From contig JAYTHU010000113.1 in the NCBI GenBank assembly GCA_043732305.1, forward strand, positions 1 through 31,660: 31,660 bases of DNA, read 5' to 3'. Positions 10,064 through 24,976 of the stretch are shown here, one piece after another. The stretch is from Oligoflexia bacterium (lineage in GTDB: Bacteria; Bdellovibrionota; Bdellovibrionia; JABDDW01). Numbering within the stretch: position 1 is the first letter of the stretch; each line of letters begins with the position of its first letter. The position numbers were made by a program, and so were the translations under genes. The notes beneath the pieces are model-generated. The model was not told the origin of the DNA. It saw nothing but the letters and a program-made list of their open reading frames with translations, and made no database searches.

Positions 10064-10530
10064 CTACTTTCTCCTCGATGAATAGACGTTATCCAGCATT
10101 TCTTCGATCTGAGGGACCTCAATTCTGAGATCCTCCGTTGCTCCCTCAATATCCGTAAGCGCTCCATCGCGCCCATCTTTTCAGCTTTCTTTTTTATGGC
10201 ATGATAGAGGATTTGGCGGGCTCAGGAGAAGTTCGGTGAGTCTTTCGTAGTCATCTGCAGTCTTGGTTGGTCCTTCGCCATTGTACCAGTCCAGGCTTTG
10301 CTGATGTTGATCTTGCCAGTGACAAGGTCAACGTCGGTCCACCTGAGGCTGTACAATTCACCGGAACGCATTCCAGTGAGAAGGGCAAGGGTCCAATGGG
10401 GAAAAAACCTGTGTTCTGTGTTTCTCGCCTCTCTCAGCAAAATATCAATTTCATTTCTGTTGAGAATGGCTTGATTGACTTCACCACACCTAACTCGAAT
10501 TCCTACGGCTGGGACATTTGTAAGTGAGCT
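10064..10530 (-). pseudogene. Tyrosine recombinase/integrase remnant
   Basis: ILNRNEIDILL...LALLTGMRSGELYSLRWTDVDLVTGKINISKAWT (box I with catalytic Arg); frameshift to YNGEGPTKTA; then C-terminal DIEGATEDLRIEVPQIEEMLDNVYSSRRK*. The N-terminus and the HxxR/Tyr region are missing. Confidence 0.85.
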
Positions 10531-10616
10531 AGACCTTTGAGTTAAAGACAGCTCTCCCCGCCCTTCGCTATTGTTTTTGTATGAAGAAAGGCAACAACAA
10601 AGGAGGAGAGAGTTGG

Positions 10617-10656
10617 ACTGCGGGCAGCTGGGCTTGGTGAAGCTGGCGCGGAACCA
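10617..10656 (+). repeat. 40-bp conserved motif, copy 2
   Basis: ACTGCGGGCAGCTGGGCTTGGTGAAGCTGGCGCGGAACCA; 37/40 identical to 7057-7096. Confidence 0.9.
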
Positions 10657-10687
10657 GTCTAAATAAGGAGATGTACTTAGAATTAGG

Positions 10688-10730
10688 CATTGAATAATTC
10701 ATTGAATTATTCAATGAGCTCTGTTATCAT
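10688..10730 (+). promoter_or_regulatory. Sigma70-type promoter of the TA operon overlapped by a 29-bp palindromic operator
   Basis: Palindrome CATTGAATAATTCA-T-TGAATTATTCAATG (10688-10716); -35 TTGAAT (10702-10707), 17 bp, extended -10 TGn-TATCAT (10725-10730); SD TAAGGAG at 10735-10741. Confidence 0.75.
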
Positions 10731-10747: not shown

Positions 10748-10993
10748 TTGAATCAACACCAACACATTCTTTCGAGTTTGGAGGAGGGGACCTATTTGGT
10801 AACCTTGCATGCACGTAGAAGAATGGCTGAAAGGAATATCGCTCATTCCGACATTCGCGAGTGTGCGCGAACTGGCAAAATATATGATCAGGCAGATGGG
10901 AAATTTAAGGTTAATGGCTCTGACTGTGATGGCTATGAGATAAGTATAATTTGCGTTGAAGATAATGGCGTTTTAGTTGTCACAGTTTTCTAA
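10748..10993 (+). CDS. DUF4258-family putative type II toxin
   Basis: TLHARRRMAERNIAHSDI...G...VLVVTVF pattern typical of DUF4258; TTG start with strong SD; lies upstream of an HTH gene. Confidence 0.8.
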   Translation: MNQHQHILSSLEEGTYLVTLHARRRMAERNIAHSDIRECARTGKIYDQADGKFKVNGSDCDGYEISIICVEDNGVLVVTVF

Positions 10994-11005
10994 AAGGAGA
11001 GTTGA

Positions 11006-11416
11006 GTGAAAAAATGGAAAGAAAATCTCGATGGTCTAGTAGCGCTAGATTATATTCATTTTACTAGCGTTCCAATGAAGGATTCCAAACATGGACCTGT
11101 GATTGATCTTGCACCCGAAGTTTTAGATCGCTTAGCAGCGATGGCTGTGATCATTGAGCGTATTCCTCTCAGGGGACTTGAGGTGAAATTTTTAAGAAAA
11201 GCATCTGGACTTTCTCTTGAGAAATTTGCAAATAAGATTGGTTTGACCTCGGGTACAGTTTTTCATTGGGAAAAAGCCGAGGAACAACGGCTTACTCCTG
11301 TGAATGAAGCTGCGGTGAGAGCCTTGCTTGCGGAAGAATTGGGCATTGATATTTCTGGTAAGTTTTCTCAGCTTCTGGGAGACCGGCATCATGACATTGA
11401 TGTCAAAGCGAGTTGA
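11006..11416 (+). CDS. XRE/MqsA-like HTH antitoxin
   Basis: LRGLEVKFLRKASGLSLEKFANKIGLTSGTVFHWEK HTH; AAGGAG SD; 12 bp after the toxin. Confidence 0.8.
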   Translation: MKKWKENLDGLVALDYIHFTSVPMKDSKHGPVIDLAPEVLDRLAAMAVIIERIPLRGLEVKFLRKASGLSLEKFANKIGLTSGTVFHWEKAEEQRLTPVNEAAVRALLAEELGIDISGKFSQLLGDRHHDIDVKAS

Positions 11417-11697: not shown

Positions 11698-11889
11698 CTA
11701 TCTAGGTAATCCTCCAGATGGCCTGATGGGACTCAGAGCAAAGATCATTGGATGTGGCACAAGTAAGAGCTTGCGAGCCTCGTCCTGAATTAACATCTGT
11801 CTTGACGAGTCTCGACTGTCCATTGAATCCAACTTGTTGACCACGACGACGGCCAACGCGGCAAATGCGATCACAGAAAGGTATTTCAA
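11698..11889 (-). CDS. Small membrane/exported protein, last gene of the transfer operon (possibly degenerate)
   Basis: AGGAG SD then TTG at 11889: MKYLSVIAFAALAVVVVNKLDSMDSRDSSRQMLIQDEARK..., abutting the lipoprotein stop. Confidence 0.45.
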   Translation of the reverse strand: MKYLSVIAFAALAVVVVNKLDSMDSRDSSRQMLIQDEARKLLLVPHPMIFALSPIRPSGGLPR

Positions 11890-11890
11890 A

Positions 11891-12298
11891 TTATTTATCT
11901 CCTGTTTGATTATTTTGTTTTCGATTTGATTGATCATTAAAAATTGATGAGCCCCGTTGGCTTGCACCCGAGCCAGAATCATTTTGATAGCCTGGGCTTG
12001 AATTAAATCCAGTGACGCCGAACTTCTCTAAATTGAAAAGGGTGTCTTGTCTGACTTGGGCATCACGATCTTCAATACCCTGATGGGTGAAGTAACCCGC
12101 GATACCTCCGATGACGGCCATGCCGAGCGCGCCGTACATGGCGCCCTGGCCGCGATCTTGACTGTTAAGCATTGCCCCGCTAGCAGCGCCGAGTGCTGCT
12201 CCGGTTCCAATTCCTAGAAACGTGGACTTTGTGGCTGTCGCACAGCCACTCATTAATATACAAACCAAACTTGCACATACCATCTGTCTTTTACTTAT
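11891..12298 (-). CDS. Glycine-zipper lipoprotein (T4SS-associated)
   Basis: Lipobox LMSG-C; GxxxG zipper GIGTGAALGAASGA...GALGMAVIGGIAGY. AAGGAG SD lies 6 nt before an in-frame ATA at 12298; the first ATG is at 12283. Confidence 0.75.
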   Translation of the reverse strand: MSKRQMVCASLVCILMSGCATATKSTFLGIGTGAALGAASGAMLNSQDRGQGAMYGALGMAVIGGIAGYFTHQGIEDRDAQVRQDTLFNLEKFGVTGFNSSPGYQNDSGSGASQRGSSIFNDQSNRKQNNQTGDK

Positions 12299-12528
12299 AG
12301 AATTCTCCTTGAATAAAATTTTTATTTCTCCTTAGTCCAAGCCGGTTCATAAGCCATGATCCCCAAAGCTTATTCCCTCAACTTCACCTCATACTGTCAT
12401 TCCCATCTCGTCTTCCGCGCCCAAATACGTCAATCAACTGATGCCAACACAAAATGCGCTATATCCCTGACTCCCCCTCAAAAGCGCCTCGCCGGTTTCT
12501 GTAGTTTCCATAACTTAGCTGACGTTTG

Positions 12529-12560
12529 GGTACTATACGTATAGGACCTGAATAGGACCC
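12529..12560. other. Palindrome plus direct repeat downstream of the relaxase-like gene; candidate oriT element
   Basis: GGTACTATAC|GTATAGGACC near-perfect palindrome with perfect core CTATACGTATAG (12533-12544); ATAGGACC repeated at 12541 and 12552. Confidence 0.4.
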
Positions 12561-12572
12561 TCGATGGACGAG

Positions 12573-13325
12573 TCAACTCATCTCAAAACAACCATTATTG
12601 CGGTTAAGAAATGTCAAAACAAAATCTTCATTTTTCATTTTTTGAAATTGGCAAATGAAAATTTTAGGATTCAGTTTTGCTGCAACAATCTGTTCTGCCT
12701 GGCGAATGGCTGACTCAATTTCGGCTGTGGTGCAAACGTAAAAAACCGCGTTTATCTTAGAGGATAGATAGTAGTCCCGAAGTTTTCTTACATATCGCGA
12801 TACGCTCTTGGGACTGCTTTCAAATTCAAACGCTACGTTGATTTTGCCGATCTTGGTGTCCAGAACCAGAGCCGCGTCGGAATTTAGTAGAACAAACGGT
12901 CTAAATTCTTCCGACTCCTGAAATTGTCCACAGGCTTGTAGAACATTTTCTGGAAAGTAGCCCGCCACCATTTTTATTTTTTTAAGGCGCTTTCTCAAAT
13001 CCATAAGACATAAATCATGAACAATTGAATCACTTTTGCAGATAGGGTTTGTCACTGGAAGCGGATAAACTTTGGCGACCACTTTCAACCCCTTTTCATT
13101 CAAGCCATAAATTGCTCTCAACTTGTTTTGATGGAGTCCTCCAGTTTTTGTTAGATAACCAGCTCTGTACAAAATTTCGAGACGATTGTGAACAGTCGGT
13201 TGACGGCAACCTTTAAAAAAGTTCTCGCCAATTTGCTCCCTTGTTGCCACTCTATGCTCGAAGATAAGTTGCAAGATCGAAATATCCCGCTGGCTCAAAA
13301 TTACCCGTGGATTCCTTCGACTCAA
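12573..13325 (-). CDS. Replication-relaxation family protein (MOBC-like putative relaxase)
   Basis: N-terminal wHTH RDISILQLIFEHRVATREQI; HDL motif; PD-(D/E)xK-like SDAAL...AFEFESSPKS..RY..KLRDY; TTGA overlap with the FtsK gene. Confidence 0.8.
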   Translation of the reverse strand: MSRRNPRVILSQRDISILQLIFEHRVATREQIGENFFKGCRQPTVHNRLEILYRAGYLTKTGGLHQNKLRAIYGLNEKGLKVVAKVYPLPVTNPICKSDSIVHDLCLMDLRKRLKKIKMVAGYFPENVLQACGQFQESEEFRPFVLLNSDAALVLDTKIGKINVAFEFESSPKSVSRYVRKLRDYYLSSKINAVFYVCTTAEIESAIRQAEQIVAAKLNPKIFICQFQKMKNEDFVLTFLNRNNGCFEMS

Positions 13326-14827
13326 TCGGTTTTTTTGACAGTCACAAGAGTATTGATGTTCGTATCTGCCTCTTTGTTTTCAATTGAAACGTCCAGCATC
13401 GGGCCAAAACATCTACCTTCATCGCCCGCCATTTTTTCTGCCAAGACTTTGCATTCTATATCAAGTTCCTCCTCTGAAAGAAACGGCGTCTGAACTTCAA
13501 GAAATTTATTCCCACCATTCCAAATGGCCCGACCTTTAATATCGGGAAGTGCGTAAGCATCAACATTTCCGAGGGCCGTGTTAGAGCCCGCGTGGGTGGA
13601 CATCTTAAATGCAATTCGACCATTTAGATTTTCAAGGGTCTTAGTATCCAGAGACTCTTTTACGGCCTTTTGAGTCGCCATAATGATATGAATGGCAGCG
13701 GCTCTGGCAAGTTTTGCCAATTCGTCGGTCAGCTCTCGGGCTTCAGCTACTATTTCTTTTTTAGAGCTTTGGCTTGAGACCTTGCCATACAAGACCGACG
13801 CTTCATCAACCGCGAGTACAATCAAATCCATTTTATGAACAGAGGGTTCAATTCTCTTGATTCCCTTTTGCTCCATGAAAACAAAACGCCTGTGCATTTC
13901 TTCTCGGATCTTCTTTAATACTTGAACGGCCTCCATCTCATCTTTTGCCACTCGTACATTGGGAAGCTGGCTAAATTCTTTCACCTCAACGCCGCGCTTG
14001 AGGTCAATTAAATACATCTGCATTCGCGGAGAGGTTCTTAATAAGCACACAAGTAACTGGCGAAAGAAAAAACTTTTCCCGCCGCCGGTGCTACCTGCAA
14101 TTAGCAAGTGGGGAAGCTCTCGCAGTTCTTGAACGATAAGACCAAAGACAGATTCTCCGACGACAAAGGAATATGGCTTTTTCAGTAGTGCCACAACTTC
14201 GCCAAAATGGAGCATCCTGGTAAGTTCTTTTTTGCATAAAAGAATGCTAATGGTCTGCCGATCTGCCGATGCGGTCACACCCTCTACAATTTGACCAAAA
14301 GAGAATTCAAGGTCCCCACGCTTGGCTTCAAATTTATCAACGCCGATACCTTTGCACTTAATAATGAGCTTTGATTTGCTCTCGTTTATGGCTATTGCAT
14401 GGACTACCTTTGGCGTTTTCCCTTGGGCATTACGCAAGCCTACGGTGTCCAGGTCCTTTTGAAACCGGCGGCGCTGGAAATACAGCCTCACACCCATGGC
14501 CATAAGCCCGCCCCACGAAGTCAAAACTAGTAGCAAAACAAAGTGCCAGGCACGCGCAAACCTTCTCAAAAAGATAACGACCGTTGGCGTGAATGCCGAG
14601 GGCCAAATGAAATGCAGACACTTCAAATAGGCATAGTCACCAAACGTAATTGCAAAAATCACCAAGAAAATGGACGCTGCAACAATTAAAAACTCCTCCG
14701 AGCGAAACTTGATTTGCTTAAAGCCGGTCCATGCAAGACCACCACTCCAACATAAAATCTTAAAAATACCCTTAAAGAACTGACCAGAATTTCCGCCGCT
14801 CTTTGCAGTATTATTTTCCATTGCCAC
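13322..14827 (-). CDS. FtsK/SpoIIIE-family ATPase with N-terminal TM helices (TcpA-like coupling protein)
   Basis: PHLLIAGSTGGGKS (Walker A), IDLKRGVE, LAVDEAS (Walker B), RAAAIHIIMATQK, IKGRAI. Confidence 0.9.
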   Translation of the reverse strand: MAMENNTAKSGGNSGQFFKGIFKILCWSGGLAWTGFKQIKFRSEEFLIVAASIFLVIFAITFGDYAYLKCLHFIWPSAFTPTVVIFLRRFARAWHFVLLLVLTSWGGLMAMGVRLYFQRRRFQKDLDTVGLRNAQGKTPKVVHAIAINESKSKLIIKCKGIGVDKFEAKRGDLEFSFGQIVEGVTASADRQTISILLCKKELTRMLHFGEVVALLKKPYSFVVGESVFGLIVQELRELPHLLIAGSTGGGKSFFFRQLLVCLLRTSPRMQMYLIDLKRGVEVKEFSQLPNVRVAKDEMEAVQVLKKIREEMHRRFVFMEQKGIKRIEPSVHKMDLIVLAVDEASVLYGKVSSQSSKKEIVAEARELTDELAKLARAAAIHIIMATQKAVKESLDTKTLENLNGRIAFKMSTHAGSNTALGNVDAYALPDIKGRAIWNGGNKFLEVQTPFLSEEELDIECKVLAEKMAGDEGRCFGPMLDVSIENKEADTNINTLVTVKKTD

Positions 14828-15734
14828 TGCGGTAACCTCCAGTGAGAGAAATAATCACGTCGCTGCCCTCGGAGACAGTCACATAGTCGGGAATCTGGGC
14901 CAGTTTTTCGGCCTGGCGATTGGCCTGCATTTCAGTGACTTTAGAAAGCCCGTTGTAAACCCCATTTTTTAGCGTCGCTTTGGGCGTCGATTCAAAAGAG
15001 TTTCCGAGTCCTTCTTTCTCAACCATGATCTCAGACATACCGCTGACCATTGAGAGCCCCACAACCGAGGCCATTTGGCTGCCAGTGTTGTTGTGAAAGT
15101 CACCTATGATACCAGGGGCGTAATCTTTGCTACTCAAGCCCCGAGCTTGCAGGACAATCTCTTGGCCGTCGGGAAGTAACCCGTGATCAAAGGTCAAATA
15201 GACACGTTCGTCGTGACCTGGGTAACTCACTTGGCCAAACAAAATCGTTGCCGGTGGAAATGCGCCGTTGCCATTTTTATCACTACCTCCGTAAAGCAGA
15301 GTCACTTGCACCGTTTGAGGCGATCTAGTGTCGATGCCGGTGAGGAGTTTTCCGATAAAGCTTGTCCCTATACTGATTTGATCCGCACCTTCTCCAGGGG
15401 TGATCACCTGCTTGGCTTTGTACTTAACCACTATTCCTCTGCCGGAACCTTTCGTGGGCCTTTGAGGTCCGTGACTGCCGACGCCACCCAAACCAGGGGA
15501 TGATTCTGGCCCAGGTTTTGACGGTGGAGTTTGCGATTTTACGAGCGGAGCATCGCTATGCTTGATCGAACTGTCATCTTCTTTAAAAAAAATAGCAGGA
15601 ACCAGTGAACCCGCAATCCCCAACGACATCGCCGCCACTGTTAAAATAGCCACGTTCTTCTTATTGATAACATTTTTTCCGCCCTCTTCTCGCAACAGAA
15701 ATTTCTTAAACCATCCTTTGATTCGAGAAATCAT
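14811..15734 (-). CDS. TrbI/VirB10-like T4SS core protein
   Basis: Single TM helix, Pro/Gly-rich linker, beta-rich domain ISIGTSFIGKLLTGID...FPPATILFG...RVYLTFD..LLPDG...GIIGD; position in the operon. Confidence 0.75.
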   Translation of the reverse strand: MISRIKGWFKKFLLREEGGKNVINKKNVAILTVAAMSLGIAGSLVPAIFFKEDDSSIKHSDAPLVKSQTPPSKPGPESSPGLGGVGSHGPQRPTKGSGRGIVVKYKAKQVITPGEGADQISIGTSFIGKLLTGIDTRSPQTVQVTLLYGGSDKNGNGAFPPATILFGQVSYPGHDERVYLTFDHGLLPDGQEIVLQARGLSSKDYAPGIIGDFHNNTGSQMASVVGLSMVSGMSEIMVEKEGLGNSFESTPKATLKNGVYNGLSKVTEMQANRQAEKLAQIPDYVTVSEGSDVIISLTGGYRSGNGK

Positions 15735-16468
15735 AGAAATTTACCAGCAACAGTTTGTTGAACTTCGACTTTCTTTAAACGTAAATTCATCGAAAAACTT
15801 TTTTGCTTGGGTAAATTCACAAACAAGCGTCCATAGGTAGTTTTGCCGGAGCTCACTGTCTTATCTTTGAGAACAAACTCCTGCGGCGAAAACTTGATCT
15901 TTTGACCACTTGCTGAAACTTTCAAATCCTCAAGGGAAACTGCGTTCAGGCTTGGATTTTGAAAACCCAAGTCAATGATATAAAAATCTCGCTTCTCGAA
16001 ACGCTGTATTTTCAAAACGGCCACATTCAACTTCACCAATTTAAAAATCAAATTGGGCCTGGAAACCTCGTGAATCACAGACGAAGGAGACGAAGCAAAG
16101 CCCATTGTAGACGCGGCCTCTTTCCACCGGACTTGAACAAGATCGTCATAGGCTCCTTGCCCAGTATTCTTGAGTAAAAATCCGTAGACACTCTTTGTCC
16201 CATATACAAACAAGTTTGTGGCAACAGCCCCCTGGGGTTGAATGGCCACATCGTTGTCAATGAACTCAATGGAATAATAATTTGAATTTCCGAGAACTAC
16301 TTTCTTGGGCTTCTCAGGAAACCGGAGCACCGTGGATTCACCCATGCGCAAATTGATCGGAGCCATGGTGGTACTATCAATATAGATTGTTCGCACCGTT
16401 CCTGCCCAGAGCTGCTCAGATTGAATGAGTAAGCAAAGAACAGAGACCAACCAGAATTTAAAACTTAT
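15731..16468 (-). CDS. TrbG/VirB9-like secreted T4SS protein
   Basis: Signal peptide (SFKFWLVSVLCLLIQSEQLWA); INLRMGESTVLRFPEKPKKVVLGN...TNLFVYG VirB9/TraK-like N-domain. GAGGGG SD lies 7 nt before an in-frame ATA at 16468. Confidence 0.7.
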   Translation of the reverse strand: MSFKFWLVSVLCLLIQSEQLWAGTVRTIYIDSTTMAPINLRMGESTVLRFPEKPKKVVLGNSNYYSIEFIDNDVAIQPQGAVATNLFVYGTKSVYGFLLKNTGQGAYDDLVQVRWKEAASTMGFASSPSSVIHEVSRPNLIFKLVKLNVAVLKIQRFEKRDFYIIDLGFQNPSLNAVSLEDLKVSASGQKIKFSPQEFVLKDKTVSSGKTTYGRLFVNLPKQKSFSMNLRLKKVEVQQTVAGKFL

Positions 16469-16469
16469 A

Positions 16470-17066
16470 CTATTTCCCCTCGTGGAAAGTTTCACCGTTG
16501 ACGTAAAGTCCGAGTGGATTCCATTCGGAGGCAGATCCACGAGCTAAATCAAATGAAACTTGAGTGGGAACGATCAACGGAATTCCGTCTACATGCAAAA
16601 CCACATCAAAAATAGCAACGGTCGCGTCTTTTGTTACCTGAACGGAAAGTCCTGAAACGTCTTGCTTGATGGTTTTACCTAAAAACTGCTTTTCTTTGCG
16701 CTGTTTTAAAAGAGAAAATTCCTTGGCCTTAAACCCATCAGTTACAAGTGGTGCAATGTCTTGAGTAATTTTATCCGGCTCAAGGGCGCTCCACTGATAA
16801 GAAAGCTTCACATACTTCTCAATAAATCTTTTGATTCCGGCCTCGTTTAACTCCACATTTGCTCGATGACCCTGAAAATAAAAATAATCATCACCTGTGG
16901 CCATGGCCACAATAGGTTTGCGACTTGCCATCATCATGCAGAGACACGTCAATAAAACGCAGACAGCCGCAAGAGCTACCCCCGCTGCTTTATAAATGAA
17001 AAGTAGACGATTGAGCGCACTCCATTGATTCAAAACATTACTTTCTGTTGTTTCTTTCGGTTGCAA
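16470..17066 (-). CDS. VirB8/TraE-like bitopic T4SS protein
   Basis: One N-terminal TM helix; IKRFIEKYVKLSYQW; C-terminal NPLGLYV hallmark of VirB8-like proteins; AAGGAG SD with TTG start. Confidence 0.8.
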   Translation of the reverse strand: MQPKETTESNVLNQWSALNRLLFIYKAAGVALAAVCVLLTCLCMMMASRKPIVAMATGDDYFYFQGHRANVELNEAGIKRFIEKYVKLSYQWSALEPDKITQDIAPLVTDGFKAKEFSLLKQRKEKQFLGKTIKQDVSGLSVQVTKDATVAIFDVVLHVDGIPLIVPTQVSFDLARGSASEWNPLGLYVNGETFHEGK

Positions 17067-18033
17067 ATTTCTTTCTCCTTTCTTTTTTTATTAATTCTTT
17101 CGCCGAATCGGGAAGACCGGCTTCAGAATATTTGTTTGCGAAATTCTTTAAATGCGGATGCACTCGGCTGGCAAAAACTTTGGCCCTTCCTGAAATGGGA
17201 TTGGTTAGTGGTTTAGCTAAAAATCCAGCGGCCCCCAATGCTCCACCGGCCATTTTTGCTCCGTGCATTTTGGTCGCTACCATCGCAGCTTTCGCAAACA
17301 TCAATCCAGGTGCCGCCGCAAGAGCAGAAGACGCTGATTGCAAGCCGTCACCCAAAAGTGATTTCGTAAAAATTGGGATGAGCAGCATACAAATACCAAT
17401 GAGTAAATTCATCACCATGGATAAAATGTAATCATCTGCACCCGTGACCTCTGGATTGAGAGCAAGCTTGAGCAAAAGTGACCCGAGAAGCGTCCACAAA
17501 ATTTTCCAAGTCGCAACGCTAATGAGTCCTCTATAAAGATTGCCGACAATTCCAGCGGTGGATCTGGGGATGTAGCAAAGAAGCATCAGGGGCGCACAGA
17601 TATACAAAATTGCCCAGACAAAGTGCATAAGTGCAATGGATGAAAAAAATCCGATATAGGCAATCAAGTAAGCACCGATCGAAAAGAAGTAAATGATATG
17701 CCCTCGCAAATCAAAAAGACTTCCGCCGCTTTCACCTTGGGAGTTCGGCCCAAGATGCTTGATTTCGTCCCACAATGTCTGAGTCTGATCTATTTTGGAT
17801 GTGATACCGTCGCTCAACATCGCAATCAGATTGATGACTGTGCTGAACGACAACAAAAGCAATATCGAAATGACCGTCCGTCTCAAAAGGTCGTTGATGT
17901 TCGGCTGTTGATCAGAACTTTTGAGCAATTCAAAGACAACCAAAAGAGCCACCAGAGGAGGGAGAAGGGTCCAGTAAATACCGACCATCTCCCCATTGAG
18001 GCTCTTTGCATACAGATTTAAATTATCAAACAT
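17038..18033 (-). CDS. VirB6/TrbL-like polytopic membrane protein
   Basis: About six hydrophobic segments, ILYICAPLMLLCYIP motif, Ala/Gly-rich C-terminal tail; sits between B5-like and B8-like genes. Confidence 0.75.
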   Translation of the reverse strand: MFDNLNLYAKSLNGEMVGIYWTLLPPLVALLVVFELLKSSDQQPNINDLLRRTVISILLLLSFSTVINLIAMLSDGITSKIDQTQTLWDEIKHLGPNSQGESGGSLFDLRGHIIYFFSIGAYLIAYIGFFSSIALMHFVWAILYICAPLMLLCYIPRSTAGIVGNLYRGLISVATWKILWTLLGSLLLKLALNPEVTGADDYILSMVMNLLIGICMLLIPIFTKSLLGDGLQSASSALAAAPGLMFAKAAMVATKMHGAKMAGGALGAAGFLAKPLTNPISGRAKVFASRVHPHLKNFANKYSEAGLPDSAKELIKKERRKKFATERNNRK

Positions 18034-18036
18034 CGG

Positions 18037-18723
18037 CTAAAATTTTGCGAGATTCGTATCGAGTTTGAAATTCTGAAATCCACTGGCAAGATCGCTGTCA
18101 AAGCGTTGATAGCTTGTGACTTCATCCTTGCCTTGCTTGTTCTGCATGGCCAGTTGCTCACTCTGAAGCTTAAGCATTTGCGTGTTGACTCGGATAAGCT
18201 GCGACAAACTATTTAAAATCTGTCCGCTGGCCTCGGCCTGCATCCGTGCCGCCCCTTTGGGAGAAGCCTCACGACTTTGCACTAAAATCTTAATCGAGTT
18301 CTGCTCTTGCTGATCCGAGTAGTCTTTGAACGAGTTGGCCATACGAATGCTCTCGGCCACAGTTTGATCGTTAAGAAGTTGGAGCGCTTGCACCTTGCTT
18401 TTTGGAACTCGTCCATAGAGATCTGAAACTTTATCCATGGCAGATTTGAAATTTTGCAACTCCGCCATGATTCGCTCATCCCTCACAGGAAGGGCATTCA
18501 AAAGACCGATGGAGTTTTCAATTCCAGAGTTCACAAGCCGCAAATAATCTTCTGTGCTTTTTCCCTGCTGAATCATCATTTGAAACTGTTGGTAGTGCTT
18601 GATGTTTTCAGCAAGAATTTGAATTAAAACGGCCACGTCTCCGCCGAAGAGATCTGCGCGTGCCATGGGGGTTAAAAGAAAAATGGTCAAACCAAGTATC
18701 CGTCCGAAACGGAAAATTTTTAT
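18037..18723 (-). CDS. VirB5/TrbJ-like secreted helical protein
   Basis: Signal peptide ending PMARA-DLFGGD; Gln-rich coiled coils; SPKGAARMQAEA. GGGAG SD lies 7 nt before an in-frame ATA at 18723. Confidence 0.65.
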   Translation of the reverse strand: MKIFRFGRILGLTIFLLTPMARADLFGGDVAVLIQILAENIKHYQQFQMMIQQGKSTEDYLRLVNSGIENSIGLLNALPVRDERIMAELQNFKSAMDKVSDLYGRVPKSKVQALQLLNDQTVAESIRMANSFKDYSDQQEQNSIKILVQSREASPKGAARMQAEASGQILNSLSQLIRVNTQMLKLQSEQLAMQNKQGKDEVTSYQRFDSDLASGFQNFKLDTNLAKF

Positions 18724-18776
18724 ATGTGGTCTCCCGTTAAATTTGAGAAATTTTTGGTACGATTCAAACTATTGAA

Positions 18777-19982
18777 TTAATCACCTATTGGTGTGGATAT
18801 AAATCTTTTAACTTTTTCAATATCGAAAACCGGACCCGTCGCCCAGCGAGGTAGATCTGCTTGCGTATACAAGCTGATACGAAACTCTCCTCTTTGTTGT
18901 AGTCCATTGCTGTTATATTCTGAATCCGACACAAAATTTATTACCTTGTTATTTATAAAATATAATTCCTTACTCGATGCGCTTTTAAGATACTCTTCCG
19001 TTTGTTCCAGATAGTTATTGCATCTCGCAACTTCTAGCAAAATATCAGTCTGGCAGTTGGTACTCAACTTAAAATTAATTTTCACCTCTATCGAGCGGAC
19101 AAGAAAATTCTTTTTCGAAGCAAGCAGTTCTCTATTAAATGCAGACGGAATCATCCAATTTTGAACCGTTAAGGAATCAGATTTCCTCGCAAATTTTAAA
19201 AACTTTGCATTCTGATAAATAGAGACGGCTGGGCTGAACATTCCAGAAATTGTCGCAACAATTACTTCTTGGTTCGCATTTTTGGCATCCTTGCAGATAA
19301 CCGCTCCGCCGGAATCTCCATAGCTAATATTTTTATCTAAGGGCAAAGTCTCAAGCTGCAATCCAAATCTTGCATTTGTAGAAGGCCCGATGTTTTGCAC
19401 CTGTCGAAAATAAATTTCCGAATCGACATTTACTTCAGTTCCAAATTTTATCAAATCACCCCTAAAGGTTCTAATGGCACATTCGCCTGAGATGAGTCGC
19501 TTGAACTCAGTCTTCTCCAGCGCGATAGTGGGAGTTTGCCCGATAAATGGGGTTTCGGGATCAACATTGAGCAAGCCCATGTCCGTATTCACCGCGCCGC
19601 CAACGCCGGTTTGCTCACCTTTTTTAAATTCCTCCAACAAGTCTGGTGGAATTGCAGCAAGATCAAATTTGATCAAGGTCGAATTAAATTTTGGATGAAT
19701 GATCGCATTCATAACTCGGTGTTGTAACTTTTCAAATGGGCAGCTAACAGTGGTTTGAAGTTCTTCATTTTGAATGTAGGCTGCTCCAAAGTAGGCACAG
19801 TGAGCGGCGGTTAAAAATTCCGTAGGACTTATAAATGTTCCCGAGCATTGATGTGTCGTCTTCCCATTAACTTGAAACTGCAACAAACAAGAAGCTAGAT
19901 TATCTTTTTGAGTATCGAAGGCGAGACACTCAAATGACAATAAGCTAGTCAAAAGACAAATTACGGCACTAGTTTTTAACAT
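18777..19982 (-). CDS. Secreted trypsin-like (S1) serine protease with C-terminal extension
   Basis: CSGTFISPTEFLTAAHC (His), DMGLL (Asp), GDSGGAVIC (Ser); signal peptide; GAAGGTG SD. Confidence 0.9.
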   Translation of the reverse strand: MLKTSAVICLLTSLLSFECLAFDTQKDNLASCLLQFQVNGKTTHQCSGTFISPTEFLTAAHCAYFGAAYIQNEELQTTVSCPFEKLQHRVMNAIIHPKFNSTLIKFDLAAIPPDLLEEFKKGEQTGVGGAVNTDMGLLNVDPETPFIGQTPTIALEKTEFKRLISGECAIRTFRGDLIKFGTEVNVDSEIYFRQVQNIGPSTNARFGLQLETLPLDKNISYGDSGGAVICKDAKNANQEVIVATISGMFSPAVSIYQNAKFLKFARKSDSLTVQNWMIPSAFNRELLASKKNFLVRSIEVKINFKLSTNCQTDILLEVARCNNYLEQTEEYLKSASSKELYFINNKVINFVSDSEYNSNGLQQRGEFRISLYTQADLPRWATGPVFDIEKVKRFISTPIGD

Positions 19983-20036
19983 TGGAAATCACCTTCTCTA
20001 ATGAGGCATTACTTAAATCTAATAAAAGTCAGTAAG

Positions 20037-20052
20037 TGCAAAGGGCGGACCG
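20037..20052 (-). promoter_or_regulatory. Candidate sigma54 (-24/-12) promoter for the protease gene
   Basis: Minus strand CGGTCCGCCCTTTGCA = GG-N10-GC with TTGCA, about 55 nt upstream of ATG 19982. Confidence 0.5.
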
Positions 20053-20108
20053 ACCATATAAAAACTTGAGATCAAATATAACATCGTTGAGGTACCTAAA
20101 ATATGAGT

Positions 20109-20432
20109 TCAAATCAAAAGTCCCCACCTGCTTTTGAGGGCTTCGATAACGGCATTTTGAAGTCTCGGTTGCATCGCAAACGCCCGCTCGAAAGGGTCTG
20201 CCCCTTCTGTAATTTGATCTGACCAAATTGCCTTCGCCCAGGCGATGGCCCCTGAGTGACCACCGCCGAAATCATTTTGAGAAATGCTATACCAGTCGAT
20301 TTCTTGGCTTTGCATATTCAAATGGGTTAGTGCCTTTCTTTTCAATTCATCATCGGCATTGAAAATTAGCAGGACGGCCTTTAATTCTCGCGACAAATTT
20401 ATAAATGCCTTTTCAGTTTCAAAATTATTCAT
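20109..20432 (-). CDS. Hypothetical protein translationally coupled to VirB4
   Basis: ATGA overlap with the VirB4 stop; 107 aa; no motif recognised. Confidence 0.7.
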   Translation of the reverse strand: MNNFETEKAFINLSRELKAVLLIFNADDELKRKALTHLNMQSQEIDWYSISQNDFGGGHSGAIAWAKAIWSDQITEGADPFERAFAMQPRLQNAVIEALKSRWGLLI

Positions 20433-22870
20433 GCAGCTTCCTTTGCTTCTGTGGGTTCAAACGCTAATTTTTTTAGAATTTCAATCTTCGTCAGTTCAGG
20501 ATGTGCTTTCTCCATCTCTTGAATCTTTGCTTTGTCGGCAGCGTCGCTGGTGCAGATCCAGTAAGACAAGGGCTCCGGCACTAATCTCAAAATAGATTGG
20601 TTTTCATCTTGCAGAAAAAACAATTCGCTATAGGCACCCTTTATCACTTGAAGACTCTTGATGGCCTCGACCTGAGCATCGTTAAAATCAAAGATCTCTT
20701 GGAAGTCCTTCCAATCAATTTTTCTCTGCCGCAAAATAATCACGCTTGATGAATTGGGCATGAGGGCATCGCGGATCTCGGGATCAGCCAAGAAGTCCCG
20801 ATAGTTCTGGCTGATGCACCAAATTCCGGCGTTATATTTTCTCCAGGTCCTATAACAGGTGATAATGAACTGCTTCGCCAACTCTCCACTTTTGAAAAAC
20901 CTTTCCGCCTCGTCACAAATAAGCAAATAGGGTCTTGCTAGGTCCGCCGATGCTGCGTCTTGAATGAACGCCGTTAAAAGCAAAAGCAGAATGTCTTTCA
21001 GCTCAGGGTGGTTGGTGAGACCTTGAACTTCAATGGTCACTAAATCTTTGGTGAGTGTGATTGTGCTGGGTCCATCTAAAAGTCGTCCATAAGCCGTGCT
21101 GCCGGTGCAAGAAAAAAGAATCTGTCCACACTTTTGCATTTCAATGTCTTTGTGATGGTCTAAAATATTTTTTAGATCAGACAAATAAGGAACTCGCCCA
21201 ATGGTTTTGTGATAGGCCTCAAAGATCGTTTCCTCAAGCATGGCCTTCTCGCGTTTCCCCAGAGACTTTTGATCGGTGTCCTTGAGAATTAATTCAAGAA
21301 CAGCCAAAATCATTTTTATTCTTGCCGGTGATGGAGTGGTCTCACCATTTGGCAGATCAAAAACATTGATACGAAGGCCACTCTCTAAATTCAAATCAAC
21401 GAACTCGCCATCAAGGCATTCCAGAAGGCGTTTTGAACTCGCACCATTATCAATCCAAAAAATTCTTGGCGTATTTTTTTGGCCATAAAACATGAGCATC
21501 AATTGGCAGAGGGTAAAACTTTTTCCCGAACCCGATCCGCCAAATATTAGCCCGTTCCAGTTCGGCAGCTCCTTTGCAAACGGATCAAAAGAGAAGAGAC
21601 TGCTTTCTCGGTTCGGAATCAAACACACTGGCTCTTGGTTGCCGGCCCAACTTCCATAGAGCGGGAGCAAATGAGCAGCGTTGCTACTTTTCATTTTATG
21701 CTGGCGGAGGCCAGTGCAGGTCCCAGGCAAAGCTTCGATAAAAACATCAAAGCATGGGAGAGTTTCGACAACACCCTCGGCCTGACCCATAGAGCGAAAG
21801 GCCTTTAAGACCTCGTCGGAGCGTTCTTCAAGTTCAATTTTAGACTTGGCCCAAATGATCACGGCAAAATCCATGGAGACCAGGCGCTCACTGCCTTCTA
21901 AAAGTTCACGCAGCAGACTTTCAATGTCGGCAAGCTTTGATTCACTTTCTAGATCACTAACATTTTGTGAGCCGGAGGCCATAGCACTGGCCACACGTCG
22001 TTTAAGCTCCAGACGCTCTCGCTCTTTTGTCTGATCTAAAATACGGATATTTTGGCTGCTCCAAAAATGAAATGGCAACGCCGTTGCAAGTCCCGCCACC
22101 ATGGAGCTGTAAGTGCTACCTTCTGGCAGGGTTTTGAGCGTGATGGTACGGAAAAAATAATCGCCCATCCGCAGATGATCTCGATGAACCTCAATATCTG
22201 TCAGAGTCAGTTGCTCAATCATGGATGGTGAGAACAAATCTTTATTCTCACGCATTTCGGGCACCCCTTGGCTTTCAGAGCGGGCAAGATTTAAATATTC
22301 AAAACAGAGATTGAACCACTCTTTTTCTGTAAGTGACCGAGGCGAAAGTTTCGTATTTTCAAGGGAGGATTGAATTTGCTTAAGCGCACGTTCGAACTTT
22401 TCACGATGAGCCTGGTACTCAGCCGCACTCATGGTTTCATAAAGCTTTGGAGCCTCCCAAAGTTTTCTTTTTCGATATGAAAATGGACGGCTTCGCACAA
22501 ACAGAAAAAATTCAGGGATGAAATATGATTTACTCTCTGCATTCTGTCTTAAAAAAGAAAGCCTAGCTTCAGCTACAGGTTGATAGACTTTTGGTGCCGC
22601 CGATGAAATTGCCTCATGTTCTGAAAGCAATTTCTCAACGCTTGGTGAGACTCGATAGAAAAGTTGGAGCCGTAAACCCTCTTCTGCTGAAATCAAAAGA
22701 TTTTCGATTTGGCGGTTAAAATTATTAATTTCTTCTTCTGGGAGACAACCAACATCAAAACCCGTAAGCTTGAATGCTCCACCGAGGGAACCGTCGGCAT
22801 AAACCATGAGTCCGTCATCGAAATGCCAAAATGGCAGACGATCAGCCAGAGAATTGATTTTATTTTTCAT
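20429..22870 (-). CDS. virB4: VirB4/TraC-family conjugation ATPase
   Basis: NGLIFGGSGSGKS (Walker A), IDNGAS, INVFD, LICDEA (Walker B), RKYNA..CISQ; 813 aa; follows B2/B3-like genes. Confidence 0.92.
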   Translation of the reverse strand: MKNKINSLADRLPFWHFDDGLMVYADGSLGGAFKLTGFDVGCLPEEEINNFNRQIENLLISAEEGLRLQLFYRVSPSVEKLLSEHEAISSAAPKVYQPVAEARLSFLRQNAESKSYFIPEFFLFVRSRPFSYRKRKLWEAPKLYETMSAAEYQAHREKFERALKQIQSSLENTKLSPRSLTEKEWFNLCFEYLNLARSESQGVPEMRENKDLFSPSMIEQLTLTDIEVHRDHLRMGDYFFRTITLKTLPEGSTYSSMVAGLATALPFHFWSSQNIRILDQTKERERLELKRRVASAMASGSQNVSDLESESKLADIESLLRELLEGSERLVSMDFAVIIWAKSKIELEERSDEVLKAFRSMGQAEGVVETLPCFDVFIEALPGTCTGLRQHKMKSSNAAHLLPLYGSWAGNQEPVCLIPNRESSLFSFDPFAKELPNWNGLIFGGSGSGKSFTLCQLMLMFYGQKNTPRIFWIDNGASSKRLLECLDGEFVDLNLESGLRINVFDLPNGETTPSPARIKMILAVLELILKDTDQKSLGKREKAMLEETIFEAYHKTIGRVPYLSDLKNILDHHKDIEMQKCGQILFSCTGSTAYGRLLDGPSTITLTKDLVTIEVQGLTNHPELKDILLLLLTAFIQDAASADLARPYLLICDEAERFFKSGELAKQFIITCYRTWRKYNAGIWCISQNYRDFLADPEIRDALMPNSSSVIILRQRKIDWKDFQEIFDFNDAQVEAIKSLQVIKGAYSELFFLQDENQSILRLVPEPLSYWICTSDAADKAKIQEMEKAHPELTKIEILKKLAFEPTEAKEAA

Positions 22871-23165
22871 AAATTTTAAATCCTATGCGGTCACTGTGAT
22901 GTGATTTCAGGGCGGCGGAAAAGTGACCAGGGGTGATGTAGTACCTAACCAAGTGGAGCAAAAAACCGTCGGGTTTGTTCCGCTTTCCAAAATAAAGAAC
23001 GAGAAGAGCCGCCGACGGAACGCCCAGAACAAGAACCGTCGGAAGCTGAAAGAAATTAATCACGGCAGCCAAGATGAGTGAGGCAATCAGATCGAGGGCT
23101 TCCATGCCCCCAACCTTCATGCGCACATCTAGGCCACGGTGAACCGTGGACTGAGATAGCTCCAC
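22860..23165 (-). CDS. VirB3/TraL-like membrane protein
   Basis: VHRGLD..MKVGGMEALD, two TM helices, KRNKPDGFLLH; lies between the pilin and VirB4. Confidence 0.75.
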   Translation of the reverse strand: MELSQSTVHRGLDVRMKVGGMEALDLIASLILAAVINFFQLPTVLVLGVPSAALLVLYFGKRNKPDGFLLHLVRYYITPGHFSAALKSHHSDRIGFKIYEK

Positions 23166-23495
23166 CTAAAACCCCGAACCCACGGCGGCTTGAAGCCAGT
23201 GAATCACGACGGGCGCCAAGAGACCGACCGCACAGGCAATCAAAACTAAAATCATCCTGGCTTTCGAGCTTTGATCTCCGCTGGCCGCCAGAATCGCGCT
23301 GTAAACCAATCCCAAAATTGAAATGGCGGGTAAGATCGTGCCAATGATCTTACTCGTGAGCCCATTCACCCTCTGTGCGAGGGGGTCCGCCCCAATGCCG
23401 CCAAAGTCATCGGCGAAAGCCATGTGGGGCGCAAAGAGAAAAATTCCAAAAATGCCTGCAACCAGGCACACCGTCCACAAAGTGGATGGTTTCAT
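23166..23495 (-). CDS. TrbC/VirB2-like pilin
   Basis: Signal peptide ending HMAFA, then two hydrophobic helices separated by the short loop GDQSSKAR. Confidence 0.8.
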   Translation of the reverse strand: MKPSTLWTVCLVAGIFGIFLFAPHMAFADDFGGIGADPLAQRVNGLTSKIIGTILPAISILGLVYSAILAASGDQSSKARMILVLIACAVGLLAPVVIHWLQAAVGSGF

Positions 23496-23497
23496 TC

Positions 23498-23833
23498 TTA
23501 GCTTTGTGTCACCAAGACTAACCGCTGTGGCAAATAGCGCCCAATTTTTATGAAAATCTGATTGTTGGTCTCTTGGCTCGAATAGCCAGAGCCGACTTCC
23601 ACGCGGTGAGAGAATTTGCCGTTGATGTCAATGGGAGCGTGGACGACGTAATCAATCCTATCGGCGCAAGCTTCTTTGGGGCGCAAGTAGAGCACAGTGC
23701 GAGGAGCATCGAGCACCATTCTATACTCGCCGAACTCTTCAATGAAAAATGCGACGCCAGCATGAAATGTTTCACCTGTCTGTGGGTCCATCCAAACGAG
23801 GTCTTCTTTTTTCTGCTTTTTTAAATTTTGCAT
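23498..23833 (-). CDS. Hypothetical beta-rich cytoplasmic protein
   Basis: GGAG SD and ATG; ends 2 bp before the pilin start; duplicated (A/V)G-x-(A/G)-(F/Y) strand pattern. Confidence 0.7.
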   Translation of the reverse strand: MQNLKKQKKEDLVWMDPQTGETFHAGVAFFIEEFGEYRMVLDAPRTVLYLRPKEACADRIDYVVHAPIDINGKFSHRVEVGSGYSSQETNNQIFIKIGRYLPQRLVLVTQS

Positions 23834-23894
23834 AAATAATTCTCCGTAAATAATGAAATATTTTTGCCGCCCGAGAACCGTCCATTAAAATTTG

Positions 23895-24173
23895 TTAGAA
23901 GATGGAACCGTTTTTAAGATTCAGTCTTGATTTGTTGATTGCGTCGAGTTTTAGCTCCACTGAGCGAAGACCCACATGAAGCCTGGCGAGTCCTCGGTGA
24001 ATCAAAGAGACAACATCTTCTCTTTTGATTCCGGCGCTATGGGCAATTTCAACATAGTTGGCCTTCTCCCAAAAGTGCATGTAGATGGCGAGCCTCTCCA
24101 GATGGGGAAGTCTCGTGATCCGGTCTCTAATCAAAGCTTCTTGCGCAATATTTGTTTTTTTAAAACTTTGCAT
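23895..24173 (-). CDS. Stand-alone sigma70 region-4-like HTH protein
   Basis: LPHLERLAIYMHFWEKANYVEIAHSAGIKREDVVSLIHRGLARL matches the sigma r4 pattern; GGAGGGG SD before ATG 24173. Confidence 0.75.
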   Translation of the reverse strand: MQSFKKTNIAQEALIRDRITRLPHLERLAIYMHFWEKANYVEIAHSAGIKREDVVSLIHRGLARLHVGLRSVELKLDAINKSRLNLKNGSIF

Positions 24174-24184
24174 TTTCCCCTCCA

Positions 24185-24325
24185 TCAATGTCTCAAATAC
24201 ATGAGGCGATATCTAAGTTGCTCCTCTTTGATTCTTGCGAGCTCCGTCTCGTTGATTTCAGACTTGAGCCAAAAAATGTAAATGCGTTTGGCCAATGACT
24301 TAATGCGGTCAAATATTTTTTTCAT
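24185..24325 (-). CDS. 46-aa small protein (not in ORF track)
   Basis: AAGGGG SD, then MKKIFDRIKSLAKRIYIFWLKSEINETELARIKEEQLRYRLMYLRH*; fills the gap between two operon genes. Confidence 0.65.
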   Translation of the reverse strand: MKKIFDRIKSLAKRIYIFWLKSEINETELARIKEEQLRYRLMYLRH

Positions 24326-24542
24326 TTTTAGCCCCTTTTGGAAATGGAATGATGTCTGCGTTCTTGTCTGATCTTTTTCGCTTTCGTCTTAGCGGAAGGA
24401 TATTTTCAATACTCACCACATTGTCTGATGGCTCACTCGCTTCTCTGGCAACTTCTTGTTGGTCAGCCTGCTGAGTTTCAAGGTGAAGACTGCGTGGACT
24501 AATATTCATCGCCATTATTAAAATCGAATGGGTCCAACTCAT
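24309..24542 (-). CDS. Hypothetical 77-aa protein
   Basis: ATGA overlap with the TraR/DksA stop; low-complexity, basic C-terminus. Confidence 0.55.
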   Translation of the reverse strand: MSWTHSILIMAMNISPRSLHLETQQADQQEVAREASEPSDNVVSIENILPLRRKRKRSDKNADIIPFPKGAKNEKNI

Positions 24543-24976
24543 GCGGCCCTCGCACCAATGCAGAGGCTAAAGAGTCTCTCTGGCGTAATCCATGCGACAT
24601 TGTTGACGGACTTGGTGCTTGGCCGACCTTCCTCGGTTTGTTTGCAGCTCACGCAGCACGCAGCGCTGGGCAGAGCAGCTAAGCGTCTTGGGTCGATCAA
24701 TTCCCCACAAGATACGCATTCGCCGAAAGTGCCTTGATTGATCCGTGCTAGAGCATTCTGCAATTGACCTCGACGGACCATATTGCCCTCGTGAATCTCA
24801 ATGCGTGCAGCGAGGTCACTCTGCTCTTGAGCGTGATCCATTCCGTCTTGCAAAAAATTGGTTTGTTTTTCCGTTGCTTCCACTAGATCAGTTTTAAAAA
24901 CTGAAATGGCTTCTTCGACTTGAGCTAGGCTCTTTGTAATTTGAGAACTAAAATTGATTAACTGTTCTTTGTTCAT
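24539..24976 (-). CDS. TraR/DksA family C4 zinc-finger transcription factor
   Basis: Coiled coil with DGMDHA (DxxDxA tip); ALARINQGTFGECVSCGELIDPRRLAALPSAACCVSCK zinc finger. Confidence 0.92.
   Translation of the reverse strand: MNKEQLINFSSQITKSLAQVEEAISVFKTDLVEATEKQTNFLQDGMDHAQEQSDLAARIEIHEGNMVRRGQLQNALARINQGTFGECVSCGELIDPRRLAALPSAACCVSCKQTEEGRPSTKSVNNVAWITPERLFSLCIGARAA

Follow-up and report, generated by a model that had tools for sequence, protein, structure and literature searches.

An FtsK/TcpA-type ATPase as the likely coupling protein of a VirB-type conjugation module in Bdellovibrionota

Introduction

Excerpts of a 2025 review state that all Gram-negative type IV secretion systems (T4SSs) use coupling proteins of the VirD4 family and that TcpA is restricted to some systems of mating-pair formation (MPF) class FA (PMC12857230), and partial text of two sources limits TcpA to Firmicutes and MPF_FA (PMC12857230, PMC3548315). 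The portion consulted of a study on streptococcal integrative and mobilizable elements reports that TcpA was never found with MobC (PMC5357655). In this work, we describe a likely conjugation module at positions 11,698 to 24,976 of a 31,660-nucleotide stretch (hereafter the window) from an Oligoflexia bacterium of the phylum Bdellovibrionota (assembly GCA_043732305.1, contig JAYTHU010000113.1). The module combines VirB-type channel genes for a two-membrane host with an FtsK/TcpA-type ATPase and a MOBC-like relaxase. The window is the entire contig C113 of a 2.99-Mb genome in 242 contigs that is 98.4% complete.

The closest described systems are the TcpA-coupled MPF_FA systems (Tcp of pCW3; Tn916 and ICEBs1). 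As in these, an FtsK-family ATPase with an N-terminal anchor is found instead of VirD4, the relaxase is not of the HUH type, VirB11 is lacking, and the best solved-structure and profile matches of the ATPase point to this group. Unlike them, the window encodes VirB2, VirB9, and VirB10, its VirB4 appears to lie outside MPF_FA, its relaxase is MOBC-like rather than MOBT or MOBM, and its ATPase belongs to a clade of its own that is not resolved as sister to TcpA. The relaxase resembles MOBC enzymes (CloDF13 MobC and pAD1 TraX) in its PF13814 domain, N-terminal winged helix, and nuclease-type acidic/lysine motif, and the repeats near its gene lie at a distance from the candidate cut site, as excerpts of the review present for TraX (PMC12857230). 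However, MOBC relaxases are paired with VirD4 in the parts of the literature consulted, whereas here the partner is of the FtsK type.

Other MPF classes share individual traits. As in MPF_F (F, IncC, and IncHI TraC), the best NCBIfam profile of VirB4 is TraC-F and VirB11 is absent, but VirB4 lies outside the MPF_F clade, F-specific genes are absent from the window, and the gene order is virB-like. The order B2-B3-B4-B5-B6-B8-B9-B10 is that of the MPF_T system of R388, and weak family-profile matches connect the channel genes to TraF, TraI, and TraJ of the MPF_B element p5482 of Bacteroides (E 1e-3 to 7e-3). Unlike MPF_T and MPF_B, there is no VirB1 or VirB11, VirB4 grouped with neither class, and the coupler is of the FtsK type. 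The same two families, FtsK and replication-relaxation, also lie adjacent and in the same order in Bacillus phages and phage-like plasmids; unlike the genes described here, those pairs adjoin no secretion-channel genes in the stretches fetched.

Gene content of the module

All genes of the module lie on the minus strand, in the order traR, orf77, a sigma-70 region-4 gene, orf111, virB2, virB3, virB4, orf107, a trypsin-like protease gene, virB5, virB6, virB8, virB9, virB10, the FtsK-family ATPase gene, and Replic_Relax, followed after a 289-bp gap by a lipoprotein gene and a short open reading frame (ORF). This agrees in strand and order with an initial annotation made from the sequence. That annotation had also described one minus-strand operon packed with many 4-bp overlaps, and in this respect it overstated the case, as overlaps occur at only four of the 17 junctions. 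Library and family matches confirmed its view of a VirB2-B10 scaffold joined by an FtsK/TcpA-type ATPase and a MOBC-like Replic_Relax nuclease. Direct library matches were obtained for B2, B4, B10, the ATPase, and the nuclease, with a weak one for B9, and none for the window's own B5, B6, and B8 proteins. The VirB4 and channel genes expected of a conjugative T4SS or ICE are present in the window, with a relaxase and an ATPase of putative coupling role beside them. No VirD4, VirB11, or HUH relaxase had been seen in the window, and we also found none there, nor a lytic transglycosylase. The core genes are as follows.

13322..14827, minus strand: FtsK/TcpA-type ATPase (FtsK-family match 2e-20; GSTGGGKS as Walker A and DEAS as Walker B; gamma domain lacking)
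12573..13325, minus strand: MOBC-like (Replic_Relax) nuclease (PF13814, 6e-10; MobC_subf, 7e-4)
20429..22870, minus strand: VirB4 ATPase of a Bdellovibrionota-specific group (TraC-F 1.5e-87 and VirB4_CagE 5e-53, both below cut-off)
14811..15734, minus strand: VirB10, outer-membrane core (TrbI 6.3e-15, above cut-off)

Exchange of FtsK-type and VirD4-type proteins at one position

The FtsK-type ATPase most likely serves as the coupling protein and replaces VirD4, because the two types are mutually exclusive at one position of the same scaffold. In the genome of the window, a VirD4-type gene on contig C51 lies between the end of virB10 and genes for a lipoprotein, a relaxase, c9 (see below), and a serine integrase. 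Six more loci in other genomes have the same scaffold with a VirD4-type protein of 536-561 residues in the place of the ATPase, and the seven proteins match SXT_TraD at 1e-29 to 1e-37. The initial annotation had named a canonical virD4 or HUH relaxase gene beyond the right edge of the window as evidence to the contrary; the window ends with its contig, and the VirD4-type gene on C51 is part of another element, which has a relaxase and an integrase of its own.

We examined this pairing in an even sample of 301 Bdellovibrionota genomes, 258 of them well-assembled, with three to five candidates scored per genome and related genomes not being independent. The VirD4-slot alignment found matches in 100 genomes and the VirB4 alignment in 96. 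The pairing used 139 of the 150 VirB4 matches listed, after eight weak ones and three upstream halves of split genes were dropped; 12 further VirB4 and 19 further VirD4 matches lay outside those listed. Of the 139 VirB4 loci, 70 have an FtsK-type gene on the same strand no more than 22 kb downstream (median 3.9 kb) and 44 a VirD4-type gene (median 4.0 kb). None has both, and 25 have neither, several of which lie at contig ends. Nine genomes hold both kinds, as separate elements. This mutual exclusion is the strongest evidence for the FtsK protein as a substitute for VirD4. PF02534, tried as a test for the absence of VirD4 (13/301 genomes, not including the window's own), was discarded since it missed the VirD4-type gene on C51.

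The sequence of the ATPase is consistent with this role. Hydrophobic segments at residues 45-63 and 95-113 form an N-terminal membrane anchor, the Walker A and B motifs are conserved among relatives, and the gene overlaps virB10. Against solved structures, the ATPase profile matched 6O1W/X/Z ("DNA translocase coupling protein") best, with E 1e-46 over positions 117-453, followed by FtsK (1e-32), with no TrwB or VirD4 entries. We take these three entries to be pCW3 TcpA, which fits the description of the TcpA structure in the review. Clostridial TcpA scored 1.6e-61 against the profile, chromosomal FtsK 1e-37, and TrwB 1e-5. In a motor-domain tree of 31 sequences, all 18 Bdellovibrionota ATPases form one group (support 93/92) on the side of FtsK and TcpA and apart from VirD4 (97/94); in this tree, the three TcpA references do not make up a single clade. 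Thus the grouping with VirD4 that the initial annotation had considered damaging was not observed, and the library, NCBIfam, and solved-structure searches gave no VirD4 match for the ATPase. The PF01580 motor, membrane anchor, and lack of a gamma domain that characterize the TcpA family are all present, while its context of MPF_FA, Bacillota, and MOBT or MOBM is not shared.

Distribution and integrative nature of the family

Relatives of the ATPase are numerous: 445 of 7995 candidates scored reached E<=1e-10, and 81 of the 301 genomes (74 of the 258 well-assembled ones) match at E<=1e-40, some several times. For comparison of gene content, we used 81 loci, namely, the window and 80 relatives, each with up to 10 kb on either side. 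The relatives are the best 80 of 121 genome loci chosen by ATPase similarity, such that the window's clade is over-represented, and many of the 81 loci are cut by contig ends. The titles of these best 80 loci name Bdellovibrionota groups, save a few labeled only as bacterium, Proteobacteria, or Deltaproteobacteria, which points to the same phylum for the host of the window. The relaxase is present in 76 loci, B10 in 67, and B4 in 55.

The synteny across Bdellovibrionota genomes that the initial annotation had suggested looking for was found, with the order B4-B5-B6-B8-B9-B10-ATPase-relaxase kept in 44 of the 53 loci for which 9 kb or more of upstream DNA was covered. Where 7 kb or more of downstream DNA was covered, 49 of 55 loci have a serine or tyrosine integrase gene after these genes. 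These genes are therefore likely the conjugation module of a family of integrative and conjugative elements (ICEs) of Bdellovibrionota. That the family integrates, that a VirD4 version of the same scaffold exists, and that the excision module has been lost in this copy had all been missed initially. A small protein family of about 125 residues, c9 (e.g., L005:13103-13516), precedes the integrase in 54 of the 81 loci and is absent from the window's copy; it has no credible Pfam match, and its pattern, judged by eye, resembles that of ribbon-helix-helix DNA-binding proteins.

Other arrangements also occur. The window's own 3-Mb genome has additional members on contigs C161, C235, C214, C141, C51, C66, and C227, namely, three or more VirB4 genes or gene pieces, at least two other FtsK-type genes of the family, and one VirD4-type element. 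In six loci (L052, L055, L066, L067, L070, and L077), the genes for an FtsK-type ATPase and a relaxase are accompanied by one of the Mom family and by two that resemble tyrosine integrase genes, and the stretch covered has no channel genes; these units are likely mobilizable elements. Their VirD4 equivalents, with a serine integrase, are L089 and L095. A VirD4 profile run across the 81 loci matched only a neighboring second element in L034.

Relaxase and candidate origin of transfer

As initially proposed, the nuclease is MOBC-like: it has PF13814, an N-terminal winged helix, and an intact acidic/lysine motif of the PD-(D/E)xK type (H103, D104, D150, E167, E169, and K173). Among 54 aligned relatives, H103 is conserved in 53, D104 in 54, D150 in 53, E167 in 54, and K173 in 51, whereas E169 occurs in 46 and is replaced by Asp in the other eight. 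The predicted model (pLDDT 96.4) has FokI as its best Foldseek match (E 2.3e-4), and a wide fold search returned winged-helix matches only. The score against the curated MobC model NF041423, 19 bits, is far below the cut-off of 200. The TraX architecture given in excerpts of the review, a winged helix with a nuclease motif, fits this model (PMC12857230). The relaxase family also matches plasmid relaxases that adjoin VirD4-type genes in Bacillus cereus (probability 98.8) and Bdellovibrio HAGR004 (98.9). Two plasmids of 11-12 kb of the cultured Bdellovibrio sp. HAGR004 carry this relaxase family (L105:4822-7747 and L106:7767-10692), and in them the relaxase gene adjoins a gene of 727 residues that is VirD4-type in L105; both plasmids are typed as non-mobilizable. 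HUH relaxase domains were found on other contigs of the window's genome, at C88:935-1261 (PF03432, 5e-15) and C242:766-1002 (TrwC fragment, 1e-9).

The gap behind the relaxase gene holds a candidate origin of transfer (oriT).

12284..12572, minus strand: candidate oriT, with GGTCCTAT direct repeats and a palindrome (12559-12529), a motif like that of integration host factor (IHF) (12517-12502), and a GTCAG motif (12474-12459)

We compared 61 non-redundant regions (of 73) behind the relaxase stop. Motif 1, TAAntnntTgaaAtnA, is common to all 61, with a log-likelihood of 198 vs 63-68 in four shuffled sets, and motif 2, AGTCAG, follows 42-43 nt after it in 24 regions and 52-54 nt after it in eight. 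In 19 of 24 cases, motif 1 has zero to two mismatches to what we take to be the IHF consensus. The first 65 nt fold better than shuffled sequences (z<-2) in 32 of the 61 regions, and segments further on do so in eight and 10; for the window itself, the first 65 nt reach z -1.7. In another 49 loci of the same clade, a set that is not independent as it includes near-copies of the training loci, the motif pair outscored every shuffle 29 times. The nic sequence of CloDF13, as given in the portion consulted of PMC5935869, matches motif 2 of the window in eight of 11 bases. These patterns make the conserved non-coding site after the relaxase a candidate for the oriT of this clade.

Phylogeny of VirB4

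The closest plasmid matches of VirB4, from Myxococcus, Deinococcus, and Thermus, are about 25% identical. In a tree of the VirB4 ATPase domain with 37 sequences, including one to five references for each of eight MPF classes, two FtsK-bearing clades and one VirD4-bearing clade (each 100/100) group together (87/52). This Bdellovibrionota group falls outside the reference members of every MPF class with moderate support, and the full-length tree agrees (80/66). Nesting of VirB4 in an established class, which the initial annotation had named as a finding that would speak against it, was thus not seen, with the qualification that references are few. The MPF_F references form a clade that excludes the Bdellovibrionota proteins (98/93 in the domain tree; 100/100 in the full-length tree), and library scans of the window found none of the MPF_F-specific TraH, TraG_N, TraN, TraU, TraW, or TraF. 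VirB4 is also outside MPF_T, and VirB11 was found in none of the 81 loci and not above the cut-off in the genome. It groups with none of MPF_B, C, G, I, FA, and FATA, each represented by one or two references on an open backbone. From so few references, a new MPF class is plausible on sequence grounds. The direction of the swap may be either, as topology tests rejected neither the union of the two FtsK-bearing clades (p-AU 0.18) nor that of the first FtsK-bearing clade with the VirD4 type (p-AU 0.19).

The same FtsK-type ATPase and relaxase also occur with a second channel type, found in L064, L073, L078, and L080, which has a TraB-like VirB10, a divergent VirB4, and TraH- and TraG_N-like genes. 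Its VirB4 groups weakly with MPF_F in one tree and with MPF_G in another (97/94, with long branches). The closest plasmid VirB4 is in L081 (Myxococcus plasmid NZ_CP123279.1, 13989-24874); a DUF2381 gene, a protein kinase gene, and a gene for an Ig-like protein lie downstream of it, with no recognizable coupling protein within the stretch fetched.

Proposed mechanism and alternative explanations

We consider it probable that the FtsK-type ring couples a relaxase-cut single strand into a VirB2-B10 channel that operates without VirB11, a reading that is based on sequence and model evidence. The element would excise by its integrase. The relaxase would bind the repeats that follow the relaxase gene and, through an IHF-like bend, be brought to the GTCAG site, where it would cut. 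The membrane-anchored ATPase ring would pump the strand into the channel, which would be driven by VirB4 in the absence of VirB11. Transfer of single-stranded DNA (ssDNA) is favored because sister elements pair the same relaxase family with VirD4, because the ATPase has no gamma domain, and because the part consulted of PMC3548315 presents TcpA systems of the Tn916 type as transferring ssDNA.

Several observations weigh against this reading. The motor-domain tree does not place the ATPase as sister to TcpA specifically, and an FtsK from a Bacillus phage-like plasmid scores about as well as TcpA against the ATPase profile (8e-60). In Bacillus phages and phage-like plasmids, too, FtsK is paired with Replic_Relax, and the stretches fetched from these contain no transfer channel. 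At three FtsK-type loci, a gene of the VirD4 type lies no more than 25 kb away, on the other strand. The TM-score of the FokI match is low (0.24). The motif pair of the candidate oriT outscored all shuffles in three of seven VirD4-type loci and in none of the nine from the second FtsK clade, nor did it do so in CloDF13. The identities of B5 and B3 are weak, and searches of the 81 loci (about 10 kb on each side) with single reference proteins found no lytic transglycosylase. A predicted complex of the ATPase (110-480) with the relaxase scored 0.00 and speaks neither for nor against the reading. Excerpts of the review further note that no covalent DNA link has been detected for MOBC enzymes and that TcpA has been proposed to move double-stranded DNA (dsDNA) (PMC12857230).

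The last points lead to a possible but less probable explanation, in which the ICE and coupler are the same but the FtsK-type ring pumps dsDNA, opened by a restriction-like nuclease, through the two-membrane channel. The ATPase is closest to TcpA and FtsK across the whole motor region, and the same excerpts liken TcpA to FtsK as a proposed dsDNA mover and describe MOBC enzymes as relatives of restriction nucleases for which no covalent intermediate was detected (PMC12857230); a TcpA pore of about 22 Å is quoted in the portion consulted of PMC13492992. However, the same relaxase family and channel genes occur with VirD4-type proteins in 44 of the 139 loci, and this relaxase family is found with VirD4-type proteins on small plasmids as well. 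The ATPase lacks the gamma domain, which orients FtsK and TraB on dsDNA, and the parts consulted of the literature on T4SS couplers contain no dsDNA-passing T4SS of diderm bacteria. The initial annotation had allowed for ssDNA or possibly dsDNA; its first option is now favored and its second appears less likely. The stronger proposal, that these elements form a ninth MPF class centered on Bdellovibrionota in which an FtsK-type motor and a pilot-less nuclease pump dsDNA through a two-membrane channel, is rather unlikely. If true, it would be the first Gram-negative T4SS that conjugates dsDNA, and the VirD4 sisters would be built-in controls.

Two further explanations fit poorly because of the exchange between FtsK-type and VirD4-type proteins. 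That the ATPase and nuclease are a replication or segregation pair of the excised circle, with a channel that borrows VirD4 from another element, is improbable. Such pairs do occur in Bacillus phage phi18-2 and two Bacillus plasmids, six Bdellovibrionota loci have the FtsK-relaxase-Mom-integrase arrangement with no channel genes in the stretch covered, and VirD4-type genes are common in the phylum (100/301 genomes), the window's own genome included. However, the ATPase gene overlaps virB10, its product has a membrane anchor, and it takes the place of VirD4 but is never beside it (0/139), while the channel-less units resemble known mobilizable elements with TcpA couplers as described in the part consulted of PMC5357655. 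It is highly improbable that the system secretes protein or releases DNA, for example in predation, with an ATPase like the EssC/EccC motors of type VII secretion. EccCa and EssC do give the top NCBIfam scores of the ATPase (6e-16 and 1e-13), and a protease of the secreted type lies within the operon; yet those scores are far below the cut-off and below the TcpA match, and the protease is a singleton. A relaxase follows in 76/81 loci and an integrase in 49/55, and the patchy, multi-copy distribution is that of mobile elements, with none of 18 genomes of one genus having the ATPase. The coupling of a cut single strand by the FtsK-type ring therefore remains our preferred explanation.

Channel, regulatory, and accessory genes

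The remaining channel genes were assigned mostly from family members, position, and profile comparisons.

23166..23495, minus strand: VirB2-like pilin (TrbC/VirB2 3e-6; three hydrophobic segments)
22860..23165, minus strand: VirB3-like membrane protein (position; 42/81 loci; family profile vs Bacteroides TraF, E 1.2e-3)
18037..18690, minus strand: likely VirB5-like protein (54/81 loci; position; Atlas lead)
17038..18033, minus strand: VirB6-like polytopic membrane protein (TrbL/VirB6 in 18/45 family members, best 2.7e-5; five hydrophobic segments)
16470..17066, minus strand: VirB8-like protein (family members match VirB8 in 4/45, 1.2e-6, and TraE in 3/45, 1.2e-10)
15731..16540, minus strand: VirB9-like protein (CagX 4e-4; VirB9 5e-5; family profile vs R388 TrwF 6e-5)
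11891..12283, minus strand: glycine-zipper lipoprotein (59/81 loci; this copy without the C-terminal motif of the family)

The Atlas clusters of VirB5 contain PF07996 (20% of members, score 0.91) and DUF4141 (11%, 0.90), and no Pfam family is common to the members of the VirB5 family. An NPxG motif is conserved in the VirB8 family. Pairwise hhalign comparisons of B5, B6, and B8 with single references were weak (probability <=18), and profile searches of solved structures with B5, B8, and orf111 found nothing credible. The lipoprotein may have a VirB7/TraV-like or exclusion role. The single-reference-protein searches of the 81 loci also found no VirB11, HUH or MOBT relaxase, or single-stranded DNA-binding protein (SSB).

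The other genes of the operon include putative regulators and cargo.

24539..24976, minus strand: TraR/DksA zinc-finger regulator, accessory (Pfam zf-dskA_traR 1.5e-9; 4/81 loci)
23895..24188, minus strand: stand-alone sigma-70 region-4 helix-turn-helix (HTH) protein (Pfam 7e-9; profile match 1.4e-11)
23498..23833, minus strand: orf111, conserved all-beta protein directly upstream of the pilin gene (38/81 loci)
18777..20432, minus strand: cargo slot, not core, with orf107 (3/81 loci) and the trypsin-like protease
18777..19982, minus strand: trypsin-like protease (Trypsin 5e-11; hydrophobic N-terminus; 1/81 loci)

The sigma-70 region-4 protein is likely the operon regulator, and a related cluster (c15) is present in 26 of the 81 loci. 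The predicted model of orf111 is confidently all-beta (pLDDT 88.5); fold searches with it turned up no clear relative (best Z 7.0, rmsd 3.9, 94 aligned), and Atlas matches of 0.79 and 0.78 provide a weak lead toward DUF736 and ssDNA-binding proteins. The initial annotation placed the protease within the operon order; it is a one-off insert, and we ruled it out as a core component. Upstream, window positions 25291-29938 contain a SIR2-like gene (weak, 0.011), a glycosyltransferase gene, and a histidine kinase/sigma-54 response regulator pair that may control the operon. Related regulators are found in eight of the 81 loci and related kinases in three.

State of the copy in the window

The transfer genes of this copy are open frames, and the end of the element has been altered.

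11698..11982, minus strand: small ORF whose 3' end departs from the C66 paralogue, which marks the loss of the conserved tail of the element
10748..11416, plus strand: DUF4258 and HTH pair, toxin-antitoxin-like, standing where the c9/xis genes are missing
10225..10698, minus strand: tyrosine integrase remnant that covers profile positions 157-233 of 371 and stops at a multi-copy repeat

Positions 11732-11939 are 89% identical to C66:1709-1917, and the likeness ends at about 11732, such that the last ORF looks cut. On C66, the paralogous gene is followed by c9, xis, and integrase genes. Here, only the 77-position integrase remnant is left while the transfer genes are intact, and for this reason excision without help is improbable for this copy. 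It could still pass on neighboring chromosomal DNA or lend its channel to other elements. Searches of the window for tRNA, tmRNA, and Rfam families gave no match, and no att sites were found. Contigs from two DNA runs of one study, one of which may be the source, cover the region, with no joints over 4000-14000 and raised depth at the repeat. This repeat (10154-10266) also occurs at the ends of C212, C31, and C53 and has about six-fold depth in the runs; the transposase fragment beside it on C53 is presumably ISL3-like. The DUF4258 and HTH cassette is duplicated within the window (7057-7780 and 10617-11415, 68-82% identical). At 30274-31581, one ORF has a DruA/DUF4338-like N-terminal domain (1.8e-24) fused to an ISAs1 transposase, which is probably why the contig ends there.

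Implications

The system is real and widespread, a variant of the conjugative ICE that is absent from the reviews consulted. Our literature search found no title or abstract opening that describes it; subscription journals and the supplementary tables of ICE surveys were outside the search and could hold it. The family breaks the rule that Gram-negative systems use VirD4 alone, and does so at scale, as the ATPase is present in about one-fourth of the genomes sampled from the phylum. Since the scaffold and the relaxase family are the same whichever motor is present, these elements amount to a natural swap experiment. This bears on the form of the DNA that TcpA/FtsK couplers move, single- or double-stranded, and on the way in which MOBC relaxases, with no covalent link to the DNA, deliver it. 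Conjugation in predatory bacteria seems to escape standard typing, as suggested by the labeling of the related Myxococcus and HAGR004 plasmids as non-mobilizable. Predatory cells, which live on other bacteria or within them, could be routes of gene flow.

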